Virus record (IMG/VR): IMGVR_UViG_3300033804_000009
Coordinates: 1 to 27,484 of that record
Source of the DNA: a virus
Lineage: Duplodnaviria > Caudoviricetes
Direction: 5' to 3' (one strand)
DNA length: 27,484 nt
In this document: one piece after another, positions 276 through 23,667 of the stretch
Numbering within the stretch: position 1 is the first letter of the stretch
Layout: every line of letters starts with the position of its first letter
Program-made: the position numbers and the translations under genes
The notes under the pieces: model-generated
What the model saw: the letters and a program-made list of their open reading frames with translations, nothing else
What the model was told of the DNA's origin: nothing
Databases searched by the model: none

Positions 276-3200
276 TCATTGTGCCCTCATTTGCTCCGTG
301 ACCTCTCTCATTTTGGGCATATAGGTGATCCGATCTTCGGGGGACCTAATGCCATAAAACTTTCTATTTAAAATCGGATAGAGCTTTTTCTTCTCATCCG
401 AACTGGCCACCCTAAAGACTTCAAGGACATCTTTGAATGGAAGATGGGCGACAGCATCAACCAATGGTTCTTTGGAAATCCTCGATCGAAAAGTTAGAAG
501 ATCCTGAAGTTTCAACTTCCCAGCCGCAATATCGCCATGAAATTCAGTCATAATATCTTCAGTTGGTTCATTCTTCAGAACCGCTTCTTGGTATCGTTTG
601 GCATAATTCTTAACGAGTTGACCCCTGGCAAAGTCTGCCGGTGACCTTCCACCGATCGGTAAGTGTGCAGCTTTTAACTCAGAGGCTTTTTGTTCTGCCG
701 CCGTTTTCTCTACCCAATAAGGAGCCTTGGTGCCCCCGAGAAAACCAGCGACTTGTCTGGTAGGTGTTTCTCCTTCAGCCCTCATCCTTTCAAGACTTTG
801 AATTGAGAATGGGAGTGGAACAAGATGAATAAGATCATCAATCCTCTGATAAACTATATTCTCGCTGGGATCATGAACCTGCACCCCATAAAAATCTTTG
901 TTACTAATAATGTCCTGAAATCTTCCAAACCATCCAGCCATCGATGAACCTGCATATTTAACCGGAGAGTGTGTCAGGGAGAAAAAATCTCTCGCGTAAG
1001 TAGGAAGTGAAAGCCGACCACCCTGATTATCAATTTGAGGATAAACGAGATCCTTCCAATTTTCCGGAGTTTTTCCTGTAAACGCGTATTGAGTGATTGA
1101 AGCCATTGCCGCTGTTAAAGAGAAAAGGCCCCACATCCAAGCCGCTTCCTGAGTGAGCCTTGGCTTTCTACCTTCTTTGATTGCCGAAAGGATTTCTCTT
1201 GTTTGTCCTTCAAACCCTTTTCCGTATTCGCGGATATTACCAAGTTTCCAGGTCACCGATCGCACAAACATTTGAAGTCCGGATTTAAAGGTCCGGTCCC
1301 ACCAAAGGTTATCAAAATTCATTTCTCCGAATCTGTTCTCGACAGATTTCCAGACATTCCGTGCGAGCTCTGCTTTTGTGATTTTACCAGATAGCAGATC
1401 CGCCTGTTGTTCAGTCTGTCTGAAATTAAATTCTCTGAGAAATTGTGCTCTTTTCAACGCCGGGATATAGGTTTCAAATAAGGGTTTTATCATCCATTGA
1501 GCCATTCCCGGAATCGATCGCAATGCGGCGCCAATATAATTTTTGGCGTGAAGGTTTTCTTTAAAGACATTGATTGAATTTATCCGATAGGATTCATTCA
1601 TCCTCATGGATCCGCCACCCCAATAGAGCCATCCAATATCATCGGCAGCCTGGGGAAACATCTTCATAAACTCTTGGCCTTTCGTCGTTGAAAGAAAACC
1701 CTGGGGATCCTTCATTAATCTTTCCCATTGCCGGCCTATTTGGTAAAGATCATAGCCCGCTTTTGGTGCTGTAATAATATCTTTGAGACCAGCCTCAATC
1801 TGTCCCTGGTTCCAAATTTTCCTAAGTCCAAGACCCATTTGAGAAGCAGCCGCCTCAAAAGTGATGAAGGAAGCATGGAAAGCAGAAAACCCGAGTTCCA
1901 TCGCCGTTGTCACATTTTTAATCGCCATGATACCTCTTGTAAGAGGATGTTCTCGCACAAGATCCCGAGAGAGATAGTTTTCAAGAATCCTACCTACATT
2001 ATCCTCCACAACCCACCGGCCCCTTCCAAGTTCTTTTGGAGGTCCTTCGATCATATATCTATTGAGCTTATTTGCCGCAGCTTCCCTCTTAGCCGGATCC
2101 GGATCGGACATCGCTGTCCTTCTCAGTTCAGTATCGTCAAATTTCCTCGGGAAATACTGATTTGCGATCCTATCATTAATTGCCCTGAATCCTTCCTGGA
2201 TTTCTTCACCAAATTTAACAAACTTTCTGTGACCAATGTCGAGAAGGAAATCCCACATTTTATGTGCTGTGATCAGTTTCATCGTATCCTGATAATTCAG
2301 ACGGGTCATTTCGATAAGGTTAGTCGTAAAGGGCACACCGCCATTTTCCATACCTTCCTTCAAGGTCCAGTATTGATGATGGAGCGGCGCCCTGGTTCCT
2401 TCAAGAGGCCGGCGCCAAAGTCCGCTAAATCCTTTTTTCTGGATTTCATCTTCTAAGCCCCTGGGAACTACTTTCCAGAAATTTCGGACGTGGTTTTCAA
2501 GATAAGCGATCCGCTCAGGTTCACTCAAGGATCGTAAAACAACATTGGCTTCCCCCCAAAGAGAATCCTCGATCGCCCTATGAAGACGCGCTATCTCCTT
2601 GAGATCATCCGGAAGCTCTGTCTCTCTCCCCATCTGAATCTTATCGACCAAATCAACTTGCTCAGCGGGATTCAATTTAGAAACACGATCGAAAGCCTTT
2701 TCGGTATCATATTCGACTTTAGTCTGTGCGAGTTCACGATCGCCTTTCATCCTCATCATTGCATCGAGGTCTTTGACATCGACGCCAGAAGTCGGAGCAA
2801 TTTTATTTTTCAGCCATTCCCAGGCATCTTTTGCACTCTCGATTTTCGGTTTAACTTCTTCTTCCAGGGCAACCTTCCCGACCTGTTTCCCTGTTTCTTT
2901 TATTTTGTCAGCGATTGAAAATTCGGCTGGCCTGAACGGCTCACCCAAGGGAACGGCTCCGATCGCTCGTACTTGCCTTCTCAGGGCATCGACTTTCGCC
3001 TCTCTCAGTTGAGCCTCACCGCTTGCGAGATAATCCCTGGCCTTCATAATTGTCCGCTGGATCTCCGAATCGGTGATCTTCCAATCAGGATTGAGTTTCG
3101 CAAGCTGTTCCCGAATCCATCCGTAAAGCTGTTTTAAAAGACCTGGCTCTTGACCTGATTCTGCTAATTGGGCAACCTTTTCTCTCGCGGCATTTAATCG

Positions 3201-6026
3201 GCCTTCCTGAGTATCGAGATTGAAGCCGCGTTGGTCAGCGATATTCTGCAATCCAGTCCGTCCGTATTTCATATAAACCCGGTTATAGAATTTAGCATTT
3301 TCCGGACCGAGATAAGATTCCATTGCGAAATGGCCTATGGTTTCATGCTCGATAGCCGAAAGAACATCCTGTTCAGAACCGAGCATTTGTGTAACGAGAT
3401 AAATCTTTTTCGTCATGGGATCATAGACACCCCGGACATTATCGCCAAGGTTCGATCTAAGTTGTTCTCTTATACGATCGGGAATATCTTCGAAAGTATC
3501 GACGATTTCAACTTCAGGAGCACCGGGATATTGCTTGAGTCTTTCAATCGCAAATCCCTGGACGGCCTCTCGTGAAAGAGGATGTTCTACAGGTTCGCCT
3601 ATAGCCGCTTCCGGTTTTGGTAATTTATCTTCAGAAGCCGGGGGTTCTGGACCTTCTTTCGGGGGAATAATTTCTCCGCCCTGTTTATCAACGGCCTTAA
3701 TCTCCCCGGTGTCTTTATCGGCTATAATCTGTCTCTCGGGGACAAATGTCTCTATGGCTTCCGGTGGAGCATCTATCATCCCACCATCAGGGAAACCTAC
3801 TGAATAGGTTCCATCGGCATTGCGCTCATTTATGACGCCCTCGCGTCCATTCACAATTACTTTATCGCCGGTGGAAAAGAGAACTTTTGAATCACGGGCT
3901 GGTGTAACTTTAAATTCAGCAATTTTCTCATCTATTCTCTGTTTGAGGAATTCAGGGGTAAGATTCTCTTCTGCAACAGCGATTGAAACGCGCGTATTTG
4001 GATCCGTAGGGATCCCAGCTTTTTCCAGAACTTCATTGTCGATATCGAAATGATAAAGGCCGGGAATGGTAGGATCTCCGGTTTTATCGACACCCTTGAA
4101 TGTCAATCCATCGACTTTAGGAATTTTTACTTCAGCTACGGATTCTTCGGTGGGTTTGCGGTTAAGTTCTTCGGCAAGCTCTGCTTTGATTTGATCAAAA
4201 GTTTCAGGAGCCTCTCCACCCTCAAGACGTGTTCGAGCCTCGCTAATTGCTTTTTCGACAAGGTCCTTTGGCCATCCTTCATCTTCAAGCTCCTGTCTGA
4301 ATCCTATTATCCAATCATCAACACCATCTGTCAAGAACTTTTCTGTCTCGATGTTTTCGACATTAGGATCGGATTCTAAAATCTGTGCCTGCTTACGCGC
4401 CCATTCTTCTTCTACGCGGGTATTAAAATTGTCTTGCGCCTTCTCCCGAATCTTATTCCATATTTTAAGATCATCACCTTCAAAGATTTCTCCTTCGAAG
4501 GCACGATCAATGATACTTTTGGCTTTTGAGTTTAAGCTTTCTCTTAAATCCCTGATTTCATTTTCATACCTCAATGGCATTTTGAAGCCTTTCAACTTAT
4601 ATGGAAAAGCAGATTCGGGACCTCCGGGAACGATTTCGCCGGCCTCGACCATCTTTTCGAAAGTCTCGGATGCCCTTTTTGTCCCAATTCCGGCCCACCT
4701 TTTGATTAGATCGATACTGATACCGCCATCAATTTTCGCGGCATTCTCTCTAACAGCCCCGATTTGTTTCTCGGATAGGCCAAAATCTGGCCCAGGAGGC
4801 CGTTCGGGAGCCTCGGGAGGGGTAGGAGTAGGGGGTCCAGGCTTTTCAGGCCCCAGCGGTTCAAGGGGCGTTGTAGGAGTAGGCCCTTCGCGGTATGCCC
4901 TGGGAGTGACCTGCTTATAAACAAAACCTTCAGGACTTATGGCTTGAGGCTCACCAGCCACATATTGAGCACCTTCCGGGTAAGTAAGGCGCCGTCGAGT
5001 TACGAATGGATATTCCCTTTCCGGGATCGGCAGAGGTTCGGTAGGGACTCCCGGATATTCCCCTCTTAAAGGTCTACCAGGTTCCCGAGATACCCTGAAC
5101 CTCTCCGGTTCCAATGGGACTCCCGGCCTTGGTCCCATCCCAGCATAAAGAGGCCGAGGTTCAGGTCTTATTCCCAATGCTCCGAAATCAGTAGGTTCCG
5201 GAAGTGCCCTTGCCTCTGGTCCCCTGCTAATAGCACCCAACCCAGCACCAATTACTCCGGGAGCTATCGCCGCTTTTAATGAGGTTCCAAGGTCTTTCGT
5301 TTGGCCAAAAGTATCAGCAAAAGCCTGGAAGCTGAATGTACCGCTTAACATCGCCGCTCTTGCCGCTCTACCACCAGGTACTTGGTCAAGAAGGCCGAAA
5401 ACAGCACCTATGCCGCCTTCCTCTGCAAGCTCTCTTGGGGATAATTTGGCTCCTTCGCTTAATTTTTCGGCGGCCGCTTCTGCTCCAAAGACTCCCGCAC
5501 CGGCTCCTATATTTGCCGCCGCCTGAGCAAAAGGAGAGGCGCGGCCAGCGGCAACAGCTAATCGCCCTGGTCCAAGTGCCCCCGCGACTCCACCAACGGC
5601 TCTCATCAGAGGACCATATTTTAAGATTGCTCCGGGTAATTGGGCTAAACCGGAAACGATCTGCCCAGGGATCCCGAGTTGTGCCACCCTCTCTTCTTGC
5701 TCTTTTGATGGTTTAAGGTATTCCGAGGGAAGAACATCTTCCGGTTGAATTTCTCTTGGTATTTCGAATCGAGATCCAGGAGGCCCTTGACGCTTACCCA
5801 ATAAAGGAAGCGTTTCTTTCAAGATTGGCCTCACGGGAATTTCATACATCCTTGCGGCACTCTCCATACCTTTTCTTAAACCATAGGGAACAGCTTCAAG
5901 CAAGGAAGGCTTTTTCTCTTCCACTTCCTTGTAAGGATCGAAGTCTAAACCTTGCGGAAATTGTTTTTTGGGTTCAGCAGAACCAGCTTTGTAAGGATCA
6001 AAATCTAATCCTTCCGGGTTAGCCAT
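276..6026 (-). CDS. Giant internal virion / DNA ejection protein of polyvalent type (1916 aa) with a zincin-like metallopeptidase motif
   Basis: Last and largest gene of the structural block. N-terminal duplicated GLDFDPYK, Gly/Ala-rich hydrophobic segment, Pro-rich linker, GVYDP...IYLV...EHETIGH metallopeptidase-like region (HExxGH at 3330-3347), long helical C-terminal region. Confidence 0.75.
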   Translation of the reverse strand: MANPEGLDFDPYKAGSAEPKKQFPQGLDFDPYKEVEEKKPSLLEAVPYGLRKGMESAARMYEIPVRPILKETLPLLGKRQGPPGSRFEIPREIQPEDVLPSEYLKPSKEQEERVAQLGIPGQIVSGLAQLPGAILKYGPLMRAVGGVAGALGPGRLAVAAGRASPFAQAAANIGAGAGVFGAEAAAEKLSEGAKLSPRELAEEGGIGAVFGLLDQVPGGRAARAAMLSGTFSFQAFADTFGQTKDLGTSLKAAIAPGVIGAGLGAISRGPEARALPEPTDFGALGIRPEPRPLYAGMGPRPGVPLEPERFRVSREPGRPLRGEYPGVPTEPLPIPEREYPFVTRRRLTYPEGAQYVAGEPQAISPEGFVYKQVTPRAYREGPTPTTPLEPLGPEKPGPPTPTPPEAPERPPGPDFGLSEKQIGAVRENAAKIDGGISIDLIKRWAGIGTKRASETFEKMVEAGEIVPGGPESAFPYKLKGFKMPLRYENEIRDLRESLNSKAKSIIDRAFEGEIFEGDDLKIWNKIREKAQDNFNTRVEEEWARKQAQILESDPNVENIETEKFLTDGVDDWIIGFRQELEDEGWPKDLVEKAISEARTRLEGGEAPETFDQIKAELAEELNRKPTEESVAEVKIPKVDGLTFKGVDKTGDPTIPGLYHFDIDNEVLEKAGIPTDPNTRVSIAVAEENLTPEFLKQRIDEKIAEFKVTPARDSKVLFSTGDKVIVNGREGVINERNADGTYSVGFPDGGMIDAPPEAIETFVPERQIIADKDTGEIKAVDKQGGEIIPPKEGPEPPASEDKLPKPEAAIGEPVEHPLSREAVQGFAIERLKQYPGAPEVEIVDTFEDIPDRIREQLRSNLGDNVRGVYDPMTKKIYLVTQMLGSEQDVLSAIEHETIGHFAMESYLGPENAKFYNRVYMKYGRTGLQNIADQRGFNLDTQEGRLNAAREKVAQLAESGQEPGLLKQLYGWIREQLAKLNPDWKITDSEIQRTIMKARDYLASGEAQLREAKVDALRRQVRAIGAVPLGEPFRPAEFSIADKIKETGKQVGKVALEEEVKPKIESAKDAWEWLKNKIAPTSGVDVKDLDAMMRMKGDRELAQTKVEYDTEKAFDRVSKLNPAEQVDLVDKIQMGRETELPDDLKEIARLHRAIEDSLWGEANVVLRSLSEPERIAYLENHVRNFWKVVPRGLEDEIQKKGFSGLWRRPLEGTRAPLHHQYWTLKEGMENGGVPFTTNLIEMTRLNYQDTMKLITAHKMWDFLLDIGHRKFVKFGEEIQEGFRAINDRIANQYFPRKFDDTELRRTAMSDPDPAKREAAANKLNRYMIEGPPKELGRGRWVVEDNVGRILENYLSRDLVREHPLTRGIMAIKNVTTAMELGFSAFHASFITFEAAASQMGLGLRKIWNQGQIEAGLKDIITAPKAGYDLYQIGRQWERLMKDPQGFLSTTKGQEFMKMFPQAADDIGWLYWGGGSMRMNESYRINSINVFKENLHAKNYIGAALRSIPGMAQWMIKPLFETYIPALKRAQFLREFNFRQTEQQADLLSGKITKAELARNVWKSVENRFGEMNFDNLWWDRTFKSGLQMFVRSVTWKLGNIREYGKGFEGQTREILSAIKEGRKPRLTQEAAWMWGLFSLTAAMASITQYAFTGKTPENWKDLVYPQIDNQGGRLSLPTYARDFFSLTHSPVKYAGSSMAGWFGRFQDIISNKDFYGVQVHDPSENIVYQRIDDLIHLVPLPFSIQSLERMRAEGETPTRQVAGFLGGTKAPYWVEKTAAEQKASELKAAHLPIGGRSPADFARGQLVKNYAKRYQEAVLKNEPTEDIMTEFHGDIAAGKLKLQDLLTFRSRISKEPLVDAVAHLPFKDVLEVFRVASSDEKKKLYPILNRKFYGIRSPEDRITYMPKMREVTEQMRAQ

Positions 6027-9681: not shown

Positions 9682-11625
9682 TCAAAATGGTAGCCCTGTG
9701 TTAGGATTAATCGGACAACAACCCGCCGCTTTTTGTGCATCAGTTCTTACATCTTTCGTAAAACCGCAACTTTCACTTATGCTATGAGGCACACAAATAG
9801 AGGTTACACCACCTTCCTCGACATAAGCACACGGATCTCCTGGCATATCGTCAGCACATAAAGCACCGCCCTTACAAGCATCCGGAGAGGCTATGTATAT
9901 TTGATCAAATTGAACCTCCGAATTGTATGTCCCATCACAGTTATAATATTTATGCTCCCCGACAAAATCGCAATAGAAAACGCCTTTGCAAACAACGGCA
10001 CCGCAGGTCGCCATCCAGACACCTAACCATGTAGTGATATAATAAGCCTCGCTTGGCCCTGTCACGCAGTTTGCGACGAAAGTTACCGAGGCGCTATTGC
10101 CGCAACAATCCGTCACCGTGACCGTGGGGTTATTGGAACAATTAGGATTTGTTGCCGGCGCGTTAAAGGCGAGAGTAGTCTCTGGGCCTTTATAACTCGA
10201 TCCGGAACTTCCGAAGGTCCCCGAGGTACATACCCATGAATAAGGAGGGCAGCCGCCCACAACGGTTATGTCTTGCCCGGTCCCACATGTCATTTGAAGA
10301 GACGTATAACTCAAACTCACAGGTGATGGGCCGCCGCCAGGCTGATTGCAGCAGTTATAAGTCATGAGTTTAAATAGTGTACCGCAATTATCTATGGCCG
10401 TAACACTAAGATCAGTTTTACAGTCGATTCCGCCTTCGGGAGCGATGTACCGTGCCGATTTACCATAAACATCTTGCGGAATAAGTTTCCCTGGCCCCTT
10501 TAAAATCCATGTCACAGGCATACAGCATCCGTTTACTTCCGGGATGCAAAGGAGAAATCTACCGAACCAACCGGCCTGTTCAACGAAGATGCTTATGTTT
10601 ATCAGCGGTGGAATTCTCCAAATTTGGGCGCCTTCGTAATACATCCAGCCGCCATAGCCAGGGTGATAAGATTCGGCGTTAGACGCCCACCACATCTGCA
10701 TTATTCTCTTATCCGGAGGCTTTTGGCAGCAATCGACGTCCAGCTTCGCTTGCTGGCTACACACTATAATTTGGCCCGTGGGATCATAAACCATCGCCTG
10801 AATCAGAAGAACGGCGAGACCAGTTTCGGAAGTATCGGGAGCCTCAGTGTAAGCCTTCCAAATAATAAAAGTGCCCTTTTCGTCAGTTCCGAAATAGAGA
10901 ATTTCAGCGTATCCAAAAGGTGTAAGAGAATAGATTTGGTGGTTATTCGGTTGATCATATGGAGGGGGACCCGTGTGGCTCCATGGGGATGTCCAATGCC
11001 GAGGTTCGTATGGAGTTTTAAAATTAAATGCTGTGAGAATCCCTCTCTCAATGGGAAATATATTCCATGATAACGGTTTACATTTTGGACACTTTGACAG
11101 GTCAACGGTGTAATAAGTTTTGATGTAATCTACACCCTCTTCCTGTTTTTTGTTTAGCTTCGTTAAAACAAGCTGAAGGGTATCCATGGGTGAATTCACA
11201 AACGGCGGATGTTCCTTTTTGTACCAAGTCATCGCCGGGACTTTAGTGGGCATATCCTTAAATGTGATTGTGCAGACAGCAGTAGGAGCAACAGCGGTCG
11301 TTTCAATCTCTATCAAATCGCCTCCCCTGAATGATTTGACCCTCAATCGAACCCCACCAGGGAACATCATTTGATCCTGGCCTTCGGAGATTCGCTGTAA
11401 AGACATTCTTCTTTTTAAACTGAATAGAAAATTTCTCGCGTAAGCCATGTAAGGTTGCGCGAGCACGGGATCTCCGATAATCCGCAGGGAGTAAGGACCA
11501 TACGTATTTTGGTTAGTCTGATTAGGGCTCCAATCTTCAGTTTTCTTCATGGCATTCATCCAGATTAAGGAAAATACCAGGATTAACCCAAGAGCAATAA
11601 GCATCCGTACTTCTCGACATTTCAT
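9682..11625 (-). CDS. Cysteine-rich virion/tail protein with Ig-like modules (647 aa; start could be 11550)
   Basis: 32 Cys by my count, including five CC pairs. Two similar beta-rich modules (VTWILKGPG..ARYIAP..CKTDLSVTAIDNCG and YSWVCTSG..LAFNAP..CSNNPTVTVTDCCG). ATGA overlap with the upstream stop. Confidence 0.6.
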   Translation of the reverse strand: MKCREVRMLIALGLILVFSLIWMNAMKKTEDWSPNQTNQNTYGPYSLRIIGDPVLAQPYMAYARNFLFSLKRRMSLQRISEGQDQMMFPGGVRLRVKSFRGGDLIEIETTAVAPTAVCTITFKDMPTKVPAMTWYKKEHPPFVNSPMDTLQLVLTKLNKKQEEGVDYIKTYYTVDLSKCPKCKPLSWNIFPIERGILTAFNFKTPYEPRHWTSPWSHTGPPPYDQPNNHQIYSLTPFGYAEILYFGTDEKGTFIIWKAYTEAPDTSETGLAVLLIQAMVYDPTGQIIVCSQQAKLDVDCCQKPPDKRIMQMWWASNAESYHPGYGGWMYYEGAQIWRIPPLINISIFVEQAGWFGRFLLCIPEVNGCCMPVTWILKGPGKLIPQDVYGKSARYIAPEGGIDCKTDLSVTAIDNCGTLFKLMTYNCCNQPGGGPSPVSLSYTSLQMTCGTGQDITVVGGCPPYSWVCTSGTFGSSGSSYKGPETTLAFNAPATNPNCSNNPTVTVTDCCGNSASVTFVANCVTGPSEAYYITTWLGVWMATCGAVVCKGVFYCDFVGEHKYYNCDGTYNSEVQFDQIYIASPDACKGGALCADDMPGDPCAYVEEGGVTSICVPHSISESCGFTKDVRTDAQKAAGCCPINPNTGLPF

Positions 11626-13474: not shown

Positions 13475-14479
13475 TTAAGAAAGTGATATTGAAGCTATGT
13501 CAATCTCTTCGACGGCCTGAAGATTTGTCAATCCAATCCCAGGCGCCACCTGACCCATGAAAACATACTGCCTGTAACCCAGGTGCCATTTGATGTAAGA
13601 ATAACCTTCTTCGATGTCCAAAACGGCATAATGCTCGCTCGTGCAATCCTTAACGAATCCACCGGCAAATCCCATGAAAATTCCAATCACGGTTGAGAAG
13701 ATGCAGCATCGACCTTCTAAGCCCCCTATCCTTCCAATGTCCATTCTCTCGATTGCTACAGCTGAACCAGGGAGGGCCGGCACATCCAGGATGGTTCTGC
13801 ATCGTGTAGCCTCAAGAGAAGGCTCCAATTCATCGAGGTAATAACACTTACCGCCGCCGCTCACGTAGAGACCAACTTCTCCCCCTGGACGATTGACCGA
13901 TTTAAGCATCGTGTAGGCGCCCCCAAGATAAATGTGGTCTCTTTTGAGGTCCATCTCGAAAGGATTGCCTGAAATCGACCGGTAGATGAAATTATCGTCG
14001 CAGGAATAAAGTCGAGCATTGCAAAAGTCAAGCAGCTTTCCGCCAATCATCTTTTGACGGTCTTGGCGTGCAGTATCGGGGAACCCGTATGCTACTCCGT
14101 TCTCGATATAGCCGGTAACGGTTCGATTTGAGAAAAAGACCCTACTGCCGAGAGGCACAAATTCCATGTGGGAAATCCCGACACTTTGAACAAGCGTTTT
14201 GGTCGTCCAGTCGGTCTTGAGCTGGATGAGGTCTCCATTCAGGACAAGAAAACAAAGAGAATCTTCATCCGACCAGCCACTATGACAAGCCCCGGATTGA
14301 AGCTGAGTTAAAATGCCCTTCCTTCTTCTGGCCATTTGCTCGCTGTCAATATCCACATTGTCAGCGACCCTCACGAAGCCTTCCTCAAGGCGAAGGTCAT
14401 CCGTGCAGAGGTTATCAACGCCTCGTTGCTTCTTCAGTTCGTAGAGAGGTTGAAGGGTGTTTTGAATAAGGCGTGGCAT
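13475..14479 (-). CDS. Probable tail nozzle / stabilization-like protein (334 aa)
   Basis: N-terminal GVDN...VRVADNVDIDSEQMARRRKG matches the typical start of podovirus tail tubular B / stabilization-type beta-propeller proteins. Beta-rich throughout. Confidence 0.55.
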   Translation of the reverse strand: MPRLIQNTLQPLYELKKQRGVDNLCTDDLRLEEGFVRVADNVDIDSEQMARRRKGILTQLQSGACHSGWSDEDSLCFLVLNGDLIQLKTDWTTKTLVQSVGISHMEFVPLGSRVFFSNRTVTGYIENGVAYGFPDTARQDRQKMIGGKLLDFCNARLYSCDDNFIYRSISGNPFEMDLKRDHIYLGGAYTMLKSVNRPGGEVGLYVSGGGKCYYLDELEPSLEATRCRTILDVPALPGSAVAIERMDIGRIGGLEGRCCIFSTVIGIFMGFAGGFVKDCTSEHYAVLDIEEGYSYIKWHLGYRQYVFMGQVAPGIGLTNLQAVEEIDIASISLS

Positions 14480-16254
14480 CAGTTTCCTTTCTTCTCCGGT
14501 TTGTTTAAAAGGCTCCCGGATTGAAGACTTTCTTTAAGTGTGGCTTTTCCGGTTGCAAAATCTCCGCTTTGTTGCTTCTCTTCTTTCTTTACGCTTTGAG
14601 ATTGAATGCCTCCGCTCTTGAGCTCTTCGGCCCTGTTTATAAGCGCGTGGAGAAACTGTTTCGGAAGCATTGGAATGATTAAGATAATGCTTAACGCAAT
14701 CTCATCCGAAAGGCTGATGTTGTCAGAAAAGGTCAGTTTCGGCATCTTGGAAATAAGGTCCGTAAGCGATATTTGGTCTGAGAGGGCCTTTGAGAATATT
14801 TTTGTGATGGCATCGCTAAGGCTTATCGAATCTGCCTTTGATAAGCCGAATGTTTTTACAACCGCATCACTCAAATCCAGGGCATCGCTTTTGCTTATCG
14901 AAATCTGTTTAGAGATTTGGTCATCCAGAGTAATGGAATCGGAAAGGGACCGAATGAAGCTTACGGTGCGAGAGAATAAGTCCGTTAGGGTTATCGAATC
15001 CGTAATGGCCTTTGAGATAGCCTTAGAAATTTCGTCGGATAGCGCAATAGAATCAGACTTGGAAATATTTAAGGCTTTGGTCAAAACATCCGACAAAGAC
15101 ATCGAATCTGAAAAAACTTTCCCAGGTGTATTTACAATAGAATCGGATAGAGAAAAGGAATCGCTAAGAGAGATAAGTATGCCAAGATATGTCGTTATGA
15201 CATCGGCCAATGTTATCGAATCCGAAAAAGGTTTTGAAGGATTTTTTGAGATAATGTCCGAAAGCGAGATGCTATCAGTTATCGTTATGAGTGCAGTCCA
15301 AATCTTAGAAAAAACATCCGTGAGAGATATTGAATCTGAAAAATCCTTCCCTGGCGTTCTTATGCCCGAATCAGAGAGTGAGATTGATTCAGGACCAGGG
15401 ACAAGACTGAAAGCATTCGGGACCGTATAGGCAATAACTAATTTAGGACGAAGCGTTGTGTCGGTAGCGTATTCCCTTGTGTAAAACACTGCCTCATACT
15501 GAGTGCTCGAGTTTTCTGTTCCATCTTTTATGATTAAATTAGCAATAGAACTGGCATTCGCCTGGAACCATTGAATCAAGGTAATAACGTCCCATGACAT
15601 CCATGCTCCCGGGTTGGCTGGGACCGTTGCGGAAGCTCCGCCCGTTGTCGTGAAGTCTCCGCCAGGATTTGTCCAGGCATTGGTACCATTATATTTATTC
15701 CAAGTTACGCCCGCCTCAGTCCATGCGGTTTGAGTAAGCCGATAAGCCCAATAGGTTCTACCTGTCGGGTTATCTCGGCTACAATTCCAATAGTATAGGG
15801 AAAGTGTTGCGGATGTTATCGTCGCATTTGCCGGAAGAGAAGAAAAATCGAATCTAAGAATGCTCCTATCATTCTGATACGAAAGAAGGAATGAGTTCTC
15901 ATAACTTTGAACAGCCATGGTGGTTGCGGAGCCATAATTAGTGTCAGGGGAGTTTTGGTTCATATAAGAATCTATTGTGCTCGGCTGAAAAGTCATTGGG
16001 CTTGCTCCCGTCCTGCATCCTATCATCACGTCCGCCAAAGCAATCGCATCCGCGAAGGAAATGCCTGGAAGGGCCTTATAACATACATCTGCAAGAGCAA
16101 GGCTATCACTCAAAGATTTTGCGGCCGTCCAAATTCTTGAGAATGAATCACCTAAAGAGAAGGAATCTGCCAAAACTTTACTATACGCTTGAGGACCGCC
16201 AAAAAGGCTGCCGTATTTACAGGTCCCATATTTTGCAGTTCCGTATCCGGGCAT
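14479..16254 (-). CDS. Fibre-like protein: repeat stalk with an inserted DNRLRE/CBM96-like domain (about 591 aa)
   Basis: Start moved to ATG 16254 (SD GAGGA). DSYMNQNSPDTNYG..RSILRFDFSSLPANATITSATLSLY..RPKLVIAY is the DNRLRE-type signature (about 15425-15990), flanked by DSISLSD-type repeats. Confidence 0.7.
   Translation of the reverse strand: MPGYGTAKYGTCKYGSLFGGPQAYSKVLADSFSLGDSFSRIWTAAKSLSDSLALADVCYKALPGISFADAIALADVMIGCRTGASPMTFQPSTIDSYMNQNSPDTNYGSATTMAVQSYENSFLLSYQNDRSILRFDFSSLPANATITSATLSLYYWNCSRDNPTGRTYWAYRLTQTAWTEAGVTWNKYNGTNAWTNPGGDFTTTGGASATVPANPGAWMSWDVITLIQWFQANASSIANLIIKDGTENSSTQYEAVFYTREYATDTTLRPKLVIAYTVPNAFSLVPGPESISLSDSGIRTPGKDFSDSISLTDVFSKIWTALITITDSISLSDIISKNPSKPFSDSITLADVITTYLGILISLSDSFSLSDSIVNTPGKVFSDSMSLSDVLTKALNISKSDSIALSDEISKAISKAITDSITLTDLFSRTVSFIRSLSDSITLDDQISKQISISKSDALDLSDAVVKTFGLSKADSISLSDAITKIFSKALSDQISLTDLISKMPKLTFSDNISLSDEIALSIILIIPMLPKQFLHALINRAEELKSGGIQSQSVKKEEKQQSGDFATGKATLKESLQSGSLLNKPEKKGN
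14690..15395 (-). repeat. Coding tandem repeat: 13 units of an 18/20-aa DSISLSD motif
   Basis: Units counted in the translation, from ESISLSD, DSISLTD, DSISLSD, DSITLAD through DNISLSD, spaced 18 or 20 aa. Degenerate at DNA level. Boundaries approximate. Confidence 0.85.
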
Positions 16255-16261
16255 AAAATCC

Positions 16262-17125
16262 TCAAAAAGGCCCAATAATCGATAAATAATTGCAGGCCCA
16301 GGGTGGATTGGCTGTCGCCGTTAAATTATATGCGCCTGGCGAATAAGCCCATAGTTCAATGTAGTCTGTGGTCCCGTTGCAAAAAAACGTCCCATAAGCT
16401 GGCAAGCTGTAATAAGTTGCTGAACCAGTTACATTCCCGTAGGAAGCTAACCACCCGTTTTTATAAATCCCAGTGTAAAATGTGATAGCTGTCCCGAAGT
16501 AAACATTCCCGATTGCGATATAAAAACCGGGATAGATTGGAGTCATTCGTGATAGGCTTGGATTAAAAATGCCATTATTATCAAAGAAAGTTGTATTTAG
16601 TGCGACCTTTGCCCACCCCGTAGTGAATGATTGACCGCCGACAACATACGCATAGCATTTCGTATTTCCCCTTTGGGCAACCTGCCAAATCGTCGCCGCG
16701 GTAGGAACTAACATCATTTTGTAAGTGTCGCCGGCCGCATTCTTCGCTGACGGAAGAGTATTCTCCTGCCCCCTAACTACCTGCAGCGTGTCTGTAGGAT
16801 TGATTAGCGTGACCCGGACAACTTCAACATTCGGGTCAAGCGCTGGGTCTGTGTAGGCCGTTGCGTCCCACCAGATAAGATTGAACGGAGGCAAAGGCAA
16901 AAGAAGACCTTGTCCATTGACCAAGGCAATCGAAGTATCTGTCGAACCATAAGTTCCGTTTGGAAGAACGACTGTAAAATTACTTACTGAATCAACCCCC
17001 TGTGCAGTCTGTCCAACGGATTGCTTATTGGCGCCGGAAATCAATGCAACTCCTGGCTGCTTTGTGGCAATAATAAGCTTCCCAAATGGAGGGTCGATTC
17101 TGTTTGAACCAGTTTTATATGACAT
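16262..17125 (-). CDS. Tail fibre / receptor-binding-like protein with C-terminal C1q-like domain (287 aa)
   Basis: N-terminal DPNVEVVRVT..TLQVVRGQENT fibre anchor motif. C-terminal KVALNTTFFDNNGIFN..RMTPIYPGFY..NGTTDYIELWAY pattern resembles C1q/TNF-like jelly-roll heads. Confidence 0.65.
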   Translation of the reverse strand: MSYKTGSNRIDPPFGKLIIATKQPGVALISGANKQSVGQTAQGVDSVSNFTVVLPNGTYGSTDTSIALVNGQGLLLPLPPFNLIWWDATAYTDPALDPNVEVVRVTLINPTDTLQVVRGQENTLPSAKNAAGDTYKMMLVPTAATIWQVAQRGNTKCYAYVVGGQSFTTGWAKVALNTTFFDNNGIFNPSLSRMTPIYPGFYIAIGNVYFGTAITFYTGIYKNGWLASYGNVTGSATYYSLPAYGTFFCNGTTDYIELWAYSPGAYNLTATANPPWACNYLSIIGPF

Positions 17126-21704: not shown

Positions 21705-21736
21705 AAAAAGCCCTCAATTACTTGACCGAGGGGCTA
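21705..21736 (-). terminator. Intrinsic terminator after the major capsid gene
   Basis: Minus strand reads TAGCCCCTCGGTCAAGTAATTGAGGGCTTTTT immediately after the MCP stop: a hairpin plus U tract. Confidence 0.65.
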
Positions 21737-22624
21737 TCAGGTTATCGTCGGAGCCACATAGGTACATCCGATGGCCGACGGCTTGATCACCTGGCGACCG
21801 AAAACATGGAGGCTCTTAATGAACTTCCCGAAGGTCGTTTCAGGCTTGTCGATATAGTCCGTGTTTGTGAACTGATCGGCAAAGGTCAAGCCCAGGGGAT
21901 GACCAAAGAGGCAATAGAAACAAAGCTGGCCTGTGGTCGGATCAACCACGCTTGGAAGCAGGTTCGACGCATACAGCGTGAAATTCAAAAGCCTTCCAAG
22001 CCGACCGCTTCTCAGGGCGCTTGTCGCGTCCCCCATCATAGAGGCATCCTTGATGTCGGATGTCTTCAGGAGCATCGCCATGATTCTCGGCATGACGAAA
22101 AACTTGCTCATGTCGTCGGGAATGTTATATTCCCCGAGAACCGATTCAGCCATAGCCAATAGCTTAATGACATTGGCCGTTGTAACCTGGACCGGTGCGG
22201 AAGCCACACCTGTCGCATCGTAAACTCCGAGGTTATATGCACCGCTGATTCTACCAGCCGCGGCGCCCTGGTTCAGCGCATCGATTTGGCTGGTATTAAA
22301 AGTGGCGAATGAGCCATCGGGGTTCACGTAGCCTCTCATCCCATTGCCGATGACATAGGCCAAAACATCAGTATCAATGGCCACTTTCTCATTCTCCGTG
22401 GCGTCTTCTGCCCATTGGCTCATGAGCGCGATATCGCTCTGGTACTTATCGATATCATCCATGCCAAAGTAGAAATAGGTATTCTGGTCGATGAGCAGTT
22501 GGACGTAAGGAGATTCGATGTGGTCCGGGGCCTTGAGAGTTCCGCCCTTCTGATAGATGTTCAAATAAACCGGCACCGTGCCACGGGTCCTGATCCAGAC
22601 CAAATTACCTAACCCTTTGATTTC
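21737..22624 (-). CDS. Major capsid protein, exon 2 (295 aa; P22 coat-like / HK97-fold family)
   Basis: The frame extends 7 codons upstream of the tracked TTG start: EIKGLGNLVWIRT...LLIDQNTYFYFGMDDIDKYQSD...GRLGRLLNFTLYASNLLP...FGKFIKSLHVFGRQVIKP. No SD of its own. Joins exon 1 in frame after splicing. Confidence 0.88.
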   Translation of the reverse strand, partial: EIKGLGNLVWIRTRGTVPVYLNIYQKGGTLKAPDHIESPYVQLLIDQNTYFYFGMDDIDKYQSDIALMSQWAEDATENEKVAIDTDVLAYVIGNGMRGYVNPDGSFATFNTSQIDALNQGAAAGRISGAYNLGVYDATGVASAPVQVTTANVIKLLAMAESVLGEYNIPDDMSKFFVMPRIMAMLLKTSDIKDASMMGDATSALRSGRLGRLLNFTLYASNLLPSVVDPTTGQLCFYCLFGHPLGLTFADQFTNTDYIDKPETTFGKFIKSLHVFGRQVIKPSAIGCTYVAPTIT

Positions 22625-22699
22625 CGTAATGTTATCGGTAGGTTCTTTATCCTACCTTCTTACCCTTTCAGATAAGTCCAGATCATATCTTCTTTTTGC

Positions 22700-22728
22700 T
22701 TGAGAATAAAATCTATCGGTGATATGGT
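22700..22728 (+). promoter_or_regulatory. Putative sigma70-type promoter for the antisense HNH gene
   Basis: TTGAGA (22700-22705), 17-bp spacer ending in TGn, TATGGT (22723-22728), then 7 nt to ATG 22736. Consensus match only. Confidence 0.5.
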
Positions 22729-22735
22729 AATCTTT

Positions 22736-23326
22736 ATGAGCAAACTTTTTGAAGTTCCATTTGTAAAAGAACAGTTGGAATACGATTATCAAACAAAGAA
22801 TCTTGAGCAAATAGCCAAAAAATTCAATGTGAGCAAGCCATATGTCAGGAAGTGGATGAGAATTTATGGAATCCCCGTTAGGAAACGGCTCGCGCCTGTA
22901 AGCAAAATTCGCCAAATGGCGATGCGAGGTTTGAGCGCTTCTGAAATTGGAGAAAAGATGAATCTCACCGCTAACTACATATCGGAGGTCGGGAGGAAAT
23001 ACAAAATTCCGATTCTCGATAAATACCATACGGGCCACATTTTCACAGAAAAAGGTTATTTGCTTTTGAGAAAGCCCGAGCATCCCCATTGTAATGGCAA
23101 AGGATATGTTCGACTCCATAGGCTCGTAATGGAAGAACATTTGGGAAGAATCCTTGATCCCAAAGAACTTGTCCATCACATTAATGGGGATAGAAAAGAT
23201 AATCGCATTTCCAATTTGATGCTCACCGATAAATCTATCCATCAGTGGAGATACCATCCACCTAAAGGCAAAAAGTCCCGAGCTCTTGGGGATTTCTCCC
23301 AATCGGATACTCTCCCTGATCGTTGA
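22736..23326 (+). CDS. Intron-encoded HNH homing endonuclease with two N-terminal HTH modules (about 196 aa; alternative starts 22724 or 22700)
   Basis: [39 protein letters not shown] is a canonical phage HNH motif. [19 protein letters not shown] and [18 protein letters not shown] are HTH-like. Lies in the P8 loop, antisense to the intron. Confidence 0.9.
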
Positions 23327-23502
23327 ACCTTGACCTTCTTTCGAAGGTCCTTGGCTGCTGATTGCCCAATTCAAAGATTTTTTCGCATTCGCACTCGCCG
23401 TTACCAGCCATGCTGTAGCATCTTTGGCTCTAAGGGTATCCCAGCAATTCACGGGATTTATTGAAGGCAAAGGTTTAATGAATTTAATCATTTATCTACT
23501 CA

Positions 23503-23649
23503 ACCTTCATAATTCGTATTAGATATGTGGGTTAACACTGTGGCATCATAGAACTTTTCAACCAGCTTTGTGCTCCAAACCTCGGGTATAAACGCACTTT
23601 TCCCTTTCGAACTATAATCCACATAACCCGGTGCTATACCGTATCCCAT
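23503..23649 (-). CDS. Major capsid protein, exon 1 (49 aa)
   Basis: Not in the ORF track (under 60 aa). SD AAAGGAGGT, then MGYGIAPGYVDYSSKGKSAFIPEVWSTKLVEKFYDATVLTHISNTNYEG followed by an in-frame TGA as the first intron bases. FIPEVWS..NTNYEG-EI is the conserved N-terminus of this capsid family. Confidence 0.9.
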
Positions 23650-23667
23650 AAGGGACCTCCTTTCGTA

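Follow-up and report, generated by a model that had tools for sequence, protein, structure and literature searches.

The locus raises the question of how a phage can keep its major capsid gene in use when that gene is split by an 878 nt insert which carries, on the other strand, a gene of its own. The window (the whole stretch of DNA analysed, 27,484 nt, from a virus of the Caudoviricetes) comprises a block of late phage genes encoded on the minus strand, among them capsid, tail-type and portal-like genes. The original prediction was that the capsid gene is interrupted by a group I intron, and the coordinates given for exon 1 (23649–23503), the intron (878 nt) and exon 2 (22624–21737) proved exact, as did the strong Shine-Dalgarno sequence (SD) placed ahead of exon 1, which was located at 23662–23655. 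The capsid gene was thus laid out as follows:

23655..23662, minus strand: Shine-Dalgarno sequence of the major capsid gene, from the sequence (duplex with the anti-SD −12.8 kcal/mol)
23503..23649, minus strand: capsid exon 1, 49 codons, with GGT at its end (its U being that of the 5′ splice site)
22625..23502, minus strand: group I intron, 878 nt, with terminal G at 22625 (RF00028 match and covariation)
21737..22624, minus strand: capsid exon 2, 295 codons plus stop, first residues EIKGLG
21711..21732, minus strand: terminator-like hairpin 3′ of the capsid stop, with a fitting position (four such hairpins were found in the search, versus 3.2 by chance)

Exon 1 runs from the ATG at 23649 to an NYEG motif ending at codon 49 and is directly followed by a TGA stop, and joining it to exon 2 behind the terminal G gives a frame of 344 aa with no internal stops. 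In the phrog_267 (major head protein) profile exon 1 corresponds to positions 34–67 and exon 2 to positions 73–328 (exon 2 E = 1.5e-25), and the capsid family profile matches the capsid of PDB 8e16 (E = 2e-36). Full-length capsid homologs aligned without a gap over the exon junction, near-invariant residues are present in exon 1, and the nearest homologs (77–82% identity) have no interruption at the intron site. An intronless homolog of 41% identity with the same protein motif is present in the cultured Rhizobium phage RHph_TM3_14A, whose junction codon is GGC. The capsid gene was contiguous at 82 of the 89 loci scored, with introns in the remaining seven, and GGT precedes the intron in 40/40 same-site introns, versus 43/80 intronless junctions. 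The full-length capsid protein would therefore appear to need splicing, and to that extent the earlier claim of a splicing-dependent capsid holds, whereas nothing shows splicing to act as a gate. The expected truncation by gene callers was borne out, as the protein called for this locus in the database (P0002) is a truncated form of 279 aa.

The capsid gene family is also an insertion hotspot, with other breaks at profile positions ~23, 30, 43–46, 55 and 121 (L001:232–1880 and 1926–2991; L002:2283–2919; L044, L059, L106, L218, L092, L273, L463 and L465). RF00028 matched the other-site inserts of L106, L218, L092 (second intron) and L465 (second intron), and L001 in part, and inserts at profile position 23 and in L059 had no RF00028 match at E 0.001. 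Locus L465 has tandem group I introns separated by an exon of 9 nt (YEG, reverse strand 1244–1252), and the middle exon of L092 is likewise short. Elsewhere in the window, three long ORFs were noted on the minus strand: a 1916 aa ORF (276–6026, no PHROG match at E 0.001), the product of which is possibly an ejected virion protein, by position; a 647 aa ORF with a cysteine-rich C-terminal half (9682–11625, no PHROG match); and a 598 aa ORF with many short repeats of the S-D-S-I-S-L-S-D type (14479–16275), which matched phrog_12240 (unknown function).

The RF00028 model covers 22659–23495 in full length with a score of 46.2 bits (E = 2.3e-10) and a P8 loop of 568 nt; this is below the gathering score of 50, and Rfam at its gathering threshold had no match over the whole window. 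Same-site relatives that lack the homing endonuclease gene (HEG) described below scored above the RF00028 gathering level in 6/6 cases (54–89 bits). The relatives came from protein and DNA-pattern searches, which gave 56 loci with 28 distinct inserts; removal of L001, with its intron 9 nt upstream, and addition of L092 and L128 resulted in a set of 29 introns. Eleven further full same-site introns brought the total to 40, and nine of these (without L481 and L536) were used in a 38-intron orientation tally. The first DNA pattern was loose (family intron at 5/120 loci), and the metagenome and genome patterns gave many chance matches, with loci kept only when they had a capsid match. Among the genome loci, 1/35 belonged to the family (L445, a Syntrophaceae bin), and cultured phages had none with the intron across most of its length. 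A sense HNH homolog in a related intron was found in L209 with no capsid match nearby, so the intron family occupies another gene too, and L230, L235 and L272 contain 3–6 group I 3′-end motifs within 4–5 kb, outside capsid matches.

The core helices and the internal guide sequence, which had been described as readable, were supported by covariation. In the 29 introns the 52 pairs make up 1508 cells, of which 1430 were paired and 249 had double changes; slid partners gave 500–710 paired cells and 18–55 double changes (counts and slid controls are from our own script, and the reference structure was the window copy, which favours that copy). Helices P3 to P9, with the P3/P7 pseudoknot and the G-binding pair, were paired in 91–99% of cells with compensatory changes, and P9.1 in 84%. 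A P1 of 6–8 bp with a U-G pair at the 5′ splice site was present in 29/29 same-site introns (the terminal G was required by the later search patterns, and the exon U only by the first DNA pattern). The following elements were assigned:

23472..23486, minus strand: 15 nt P1-loop insertion, seen only in the window copy (edges from alignment)
23463..23468, minus strand: internal guide sequence, 3′ strand of P1
23268..23456, minus strand: 5′ half of the ribozyme core (RF00028 match, covariation), with P3 5′ (23456–23450), P4, P5 and its extension, P6/P6a, P7 5′ (23323–23317), a single interrupted hairpin between P7 and P3, P3 3′ (23282–23276) and the P8 5′ arm (23275–23268)
22637..22699, minus strand: 3′ half of the core, with the P8 3′ arm (22699–22692), P7 3′ (22685–22680), P9 and P9.1

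Two compensatory changes in P7 occur in the window copy only, among the 29 introns. The insert is a group I intron at the capsid site; it fits group IA in general, and it may be IA1-like. Subgroup IA2 was considered and dropped, since the P7-P3 segment is one hairpin, usually interrupted, in 29/29 introns and not P7.1 plus P7.2, the two hairpins given for IA2 in passages of PMC3428280. In each of two runs the whole intron lies within a single contig (0 and 6 differences along the contigs), which makes an assembly artefact unlikely, with the proviso that both runs may be source DNA of the window. Comparison of three DNA runs with the locus gave no joint and no inverted form, in contigs, which lose rare variants. 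With this anatomy and the continuity of the exons, the capsid gene is split by a group I intron, which very likely self-splices.

The 568 nt P8 loop had been treated as filler in the original prediction, and neither the gene that it contains nor the open frame on the capsid strand was mentioned. The gene and its promoter-like site lie antisense to the capsid gene:

22736..23326, plus strand: gene for an HTH-HNH homing endonuclease of 196 aa, counted from the predicted start (HNH_3, E = 5e-13; HTH_28)
22700..22728, plus strand: σ70-like site (TTGAGA, 17 nt, TG, TATGGT) adjoining the P8 arm

The final 51 nt of the HNH gene overlap the ribozyme core. The gene is intact, its HNH motif residues are conserved, and pN/pS was 0.39–0.45 between the window gene and its nearest relatives and 0.23–0.45 in 6/6 antisense pairs, showing purifying selection; no solved structure matched the protein. 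The same-site introns are sporadically distributed, consistent with homing. Loci L415 and L417 have near-identical cores with the HNH gene in one of the two, and related alleles without the intron break off precisely where the exons meet in runs X1 and X2 (loose ends 22601 and 22624). Homing into intronless capsid genes is thus a strongly favoured role for the enzyme.

Taken alone, the σ70-like site in the window is not above chance (2 found versus 3.4 expected, with a loose rule), and the evidence for it is its conserved position. A promoter-like site in the direction of the HNH gene was present in 17/19 introns, versus 1/19 in the opposite direction; in nine added introns these numbers were 6/9 and 2/9, and 10/11 antisense copies have the site. 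This pattern argues that a host-type promoter, with its −35 box at the inner end of the P8 arm, probably moves with the cassette in either orientation, and the nuclease would be expressed from it separately from the capsid message. In the window the HNH ATG is located 7 nt past the −10 box, and the spacing is 6–7 nt in five antisense copies including this one, which predicts a leaderless HNH mRNA in those five; a leadered transcript is also possible, because there is an SD-like stretch upstream of the HNH start in the window. No terminator for the antisense transcript was found above chance.

In the 38 same-site introns the cassette is antisense in 11, sense in 17 and absent in 10. It begins at one P8 arm, and its other end falls −11 to +51 nt from the opposite end of the helix, in keeping with inversion between the P8 arms. 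Remnants of a cassette end (promoter or basic C-terminal tail) were found in the HEG-less introns of L246, L282, L327, L408 and L417, showing these to be internal deletions, with the remnant in sense direction in L246 and L282 and antisense in L327. A single antisense clade was rejected with 19 HNH rows (p-AU 0.008) and with 29 core rows (p-AU 0.03), but not with 34 HNH rows and a simpler model (p-AU 0.127); the 34-row tree has five orientation changes (bootstrap 4–6), of which the starred branches force one. At least one change of orientation is certain, and repeated inversion was dropped as an established result since the 34-row tree does not reject a single antisense clade. The trees could also be explained by swapping of cassettes between introns or by separate invasions. 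Nuclear HEGs were reportedly found to switch strands in a report from 2004.

The placement of the capsid-gene intron as new did not hold, as such introns are in print for LittleE, crAss-like phages and Tuc2009. The closest layout is that of LittleE (Pope et al. 2013, PMC3706429; JF937101), which according to passages of that paper has a ~820 nt intron in the major capsid gene, with an exon U, a terminal G and the endonuclease gene 14 on the opposite strand, as in the window; splicing was demonstrated by RT-PCR and N-terminal sequencing. Its authors presume very efficient splicing; a regulatory role, as originally proposed here, is not supported. LittleE differs in its host group, its intron type is called unclear, the word 'promoter' does not occur in the paper, and these passages describe no two-orientation family; the likeness is one of layout. 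Passages of the same paper cite the capsid intron of Tuc2009, and those of Yutin et al. 2021 (PMC7886860) describe predicted capsid-gene group I introns in crAss-like phages, sometimes several per gene. In both, introns of group I interrupt the capsid gene as in the window, whereas the crAss-like introns were found via endonuclease domains in co-directed frames, and the passages describe no antisense cassette.

Opposite-strand HEGs with their own promoter are known from I-DirII and Dsq.L2066 in nuclear rDNA, where both orientations occur at a single insertion site, as in the family described here (passages of PMC9548176 and PMC3073962). These are His-Cys box enzymes in an untranslated rRNA, for which the same passages give a compartment model by which interference is avoided, while the host transcript in the window is a translated mRNA of bacterial type, and the strand conflict also involves ribosomes and polarity. 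The phage DNA polymerase intron enzyme I-PfoP3I (passages of PMC3428280) resembles the window gene in its C-terminal HNH, group IA intron and ORF overlapping the core, but its ORF runs through P6a-P7.2 of an IA2 intron. T4 segD is an antisense neighbour of the T4 capsid gene, but it is free-standing and its own promoter was not found (PMC2988022). Passages on intron-rich jumbo phages name terL, nrdD and DNA polymerase genes (PMC12880540), and the words 'antisense' and 'orientation' are absent from PMC11878797, PMC11835236 and PMC1995217. A capsid-gene intron, and an opposite-strand nuclease inside one, are thus already known. In the literature covered, mostly open papers, we found no two-orientation phage intron family and no stop-free host-strand frame over an antisense HEG; the stop-free capsid strand across an intron with an antisense HEG is the new element:

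22652..23491, minus strand: open frame of 279 codons on the capsid strand, which begins with an ATG at nt 12 of the intron and extends over the core and the entire antisense gene

An ATG or GTG within 16 nt of the 5′ splice site was present in 11/11 antisense introns, 3/17 sense introns and 6/10 HEG-less introns. In all 11 antisense introns it is located at nt 7–12, adjoining the exon 1 stop, and in 10 of them the frame is open as far as the P7 3′ region or further; an open frame was also found in 5/10 HEG-less introns. In-register stops opposite the HNH gene were absent from 8/8 of the antisense introns first found, versus 1–9 in each of 11/11 sense genes, and the other two frames of the antisense introns contain 6–19 stops each. 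This is reflected in the codons of the HNH genes, as TTA and CTA make up 0/139 Leu codons in eight antisense genes versus 26/181 in eleven sense genes, and TCA 0/100 versus 19/105 Ser codons (0/239 versus 45/286 when pooled), with the remaining A-ending codons used at frequencies of 0.196 and 0.201, respectively. From neighbouring genes, 20.1 of the three codons were expected over seven loci and none was observed; in the window gene 5.5 were expected (P = 0.002), although the intron copies are related and P values overstate their independence. Loci L359 and L361 have too little neighbouring DNA for such an expectation. Of the loci found later, the antisense genes in L460, L463 and L360 (partial) also have none of these codons, L465 has four, and 8/8 sense genes have 3–20 each.

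A gene that avoids TTA, CTA and TCA will often leave its in-register antisense frame open, and the open strand might be an untranslated and functionless consequence of HNH codon choice and shared ancestry. The low expectation (0–1.8) at 3/7 antisense loci, the single antisense origin allowed by the 34-row tree, and the lack of the trait in L465 and LittleE agree with this. Against it, the three codons are used at normal levels in the sense homologs, and the remaining A-ending codons show no such effect; only 2/56 further HNH matches lack the three codons, one of them the antisense L360; and the frame is in phase with its start codon across a variable core. Furthermore, fourfold sites differ by 0.59–0.70 in 5/6 antisense pairs, and the codon lack is therefore not simply inherited. 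We consider a functionless origin distinctly improbable.

If the frame is selected, its product could be the reason, either as a minor capsid variant formed by fusion of the intron frame with exon 2 or as a splicing helper. The frame does reach exon 2 in frame in 6/10 open antisense introns, but it stops short of exon 2 in the window, L359, L382 and L460, the peptides had no Pfam match at threshold in 4/4 cases tested, and amino acid constraint is absent, with pN/pS of 0.86–1.44 versus 0.94–1.96 in control frames. Hence it is the openness that appears to be selected and not the product, and a useful protein is very improbable. Stop avoidance tied to antisense orientation, with an unconstrained peptide, is well supported as a pattern; in one case (L003), a mismatch in P7 removes a TAG from the frame. 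Based on this pattern of selection, we consider it likely that ribosomes which terminate where exon 1 ends begin again at the ATG or GTG 7–12 nt into the intron.

The P1-loop insertion of the window copy preserves the capsid-strand frame and leaves only 3 bp of the usual P10 register, with a start-to-P distance of 42 nt, versus 27–30 nt in the other 10 antisense introns. It might result in altered or weaker 3′ splice-site guidance. The insertion can also pair with nt 7–16 of exon 2 (−6.2 kcal/mol), which is stronger than the usual P10 register.

What such ribosomes would achieve can be read in several ways. Translating ribosomes in the frame could displace the antisense HNH mRNA from the capsid pre-mRNA, preventing a duplex and its cleavage by RNase III. 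The trait follows antisense orientation, the two transcripts are convergent and complementary along the entire insert, and antisense interference is called an open problem for nuclear antisense HEGs in passages of PMC9548176. Conversely, the three sense copies with a start in the P1 loop keep their frame open into the HNH gene, with which that start is in frame, where no antisense RNA is expected, and the two RNAs may overlap little if the HNH promoter is early and the capsid gene late. We therefore regard stripping of the antisense RNA as unlikely.

The ribosomes might instead time the folding of the ribozyme, by holding P1–P7 of the 5′ core unfolded until the 3′ half has been transcribed, which would avoid misfolding and premature 5′ cleavage. 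The frame spans the entire 5′ core in 11/11 antisense introns, including L465, and the P-to-Q distance is a multiple of three in 10/11 antisense introns (with four lengths) versus 7/17 sense introns. Ribosomes on the upstream exon are also described as chaperones of bacterial group I introns in passages of PMC3073962. A folding role by itself gives no account of the purging of stops along the full 600–850 nt loop, and in 14/17 sense copies, whose loops are just as long, there is no ATG or GTG start, which leaves such timing a quite unlikely purpose.

The explanation that we prefer is that the ribosomes cover the ~600–850 nt of otherwise untranslated nascent late RNA until the 3′ splice site is made, a purpose to which we give an even chance. 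Rho acts on untranslated RNA, and it is about equally plausible and implausible that the cover would act against Rho-type polarity or decay. In sense copies the same cover would come from translation of the HNH gene. Restart would have to be limited, because splicing is reported to suffer when ribosomes occupy the core; the weak SD-like stretch with which exon 1 ends is paired in P1 (−5.5 kcal/mol), and one may speculate that this pairing provides the limit. Several observations argue against protective cover: ribosomes entering the core reportedly impair splicing, and most group I introns are said to exclude them (PMC3073962); L465, with its intron behind a second intron and a 9 nt exon, is antisense yet has four in-register stops; LittleE has stops on the capsid strand within gene 14, and still splices and makes virions; 5/10 HEG-less introns have an open frame too; the antisense loops are no more than slightly C-rich (C/G 0.85–1.16), a weak Rho-site signal; and the ATG overlaps the P10 guide and may partly be a by-product of it. 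Taken together, a splicing intron, a backward HNH gene with its own promoter and a stop-free frame guarding the capsid message would form a combined explanation that is evenly poised between right and wrong. The same balance applies to the wider proposal of a mobile intron family in which the cassette has been flipped between the P8 arms together with its promoter, with antisense copies keeping a peptide-indifferent frame that would lead ribosomes across the ribozyme and the reverse side of the nuclease gene and so shield the late transcript.

The capsid intron alone is one more example of its kind, and the stop-free strand matters more. It offers a clean natural example in which stop codons are selected against while the peptide is not under selection, and the controls are built in: the same site, a homologous nuclease in both orientations, and HEG-less forms. 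For annotation, the consequences are a capsid protein truncated by gene callers, a spurious gene of 279 aa that can be called, and an intron missed by Rfam at gathering level. The finding bears on the coexistence of an antisense HEG with its host transcript, which according to passages of PMC9548176 is unsolved for nuclear introns, and on the survival of long introns in phage late operons, where translation is coupled to transcription; both can be tested by single silent changes. If true, what this selected ORF yields would be ribosome occupancy, and this would reverse the rule that group I introns exclude ribosomes.
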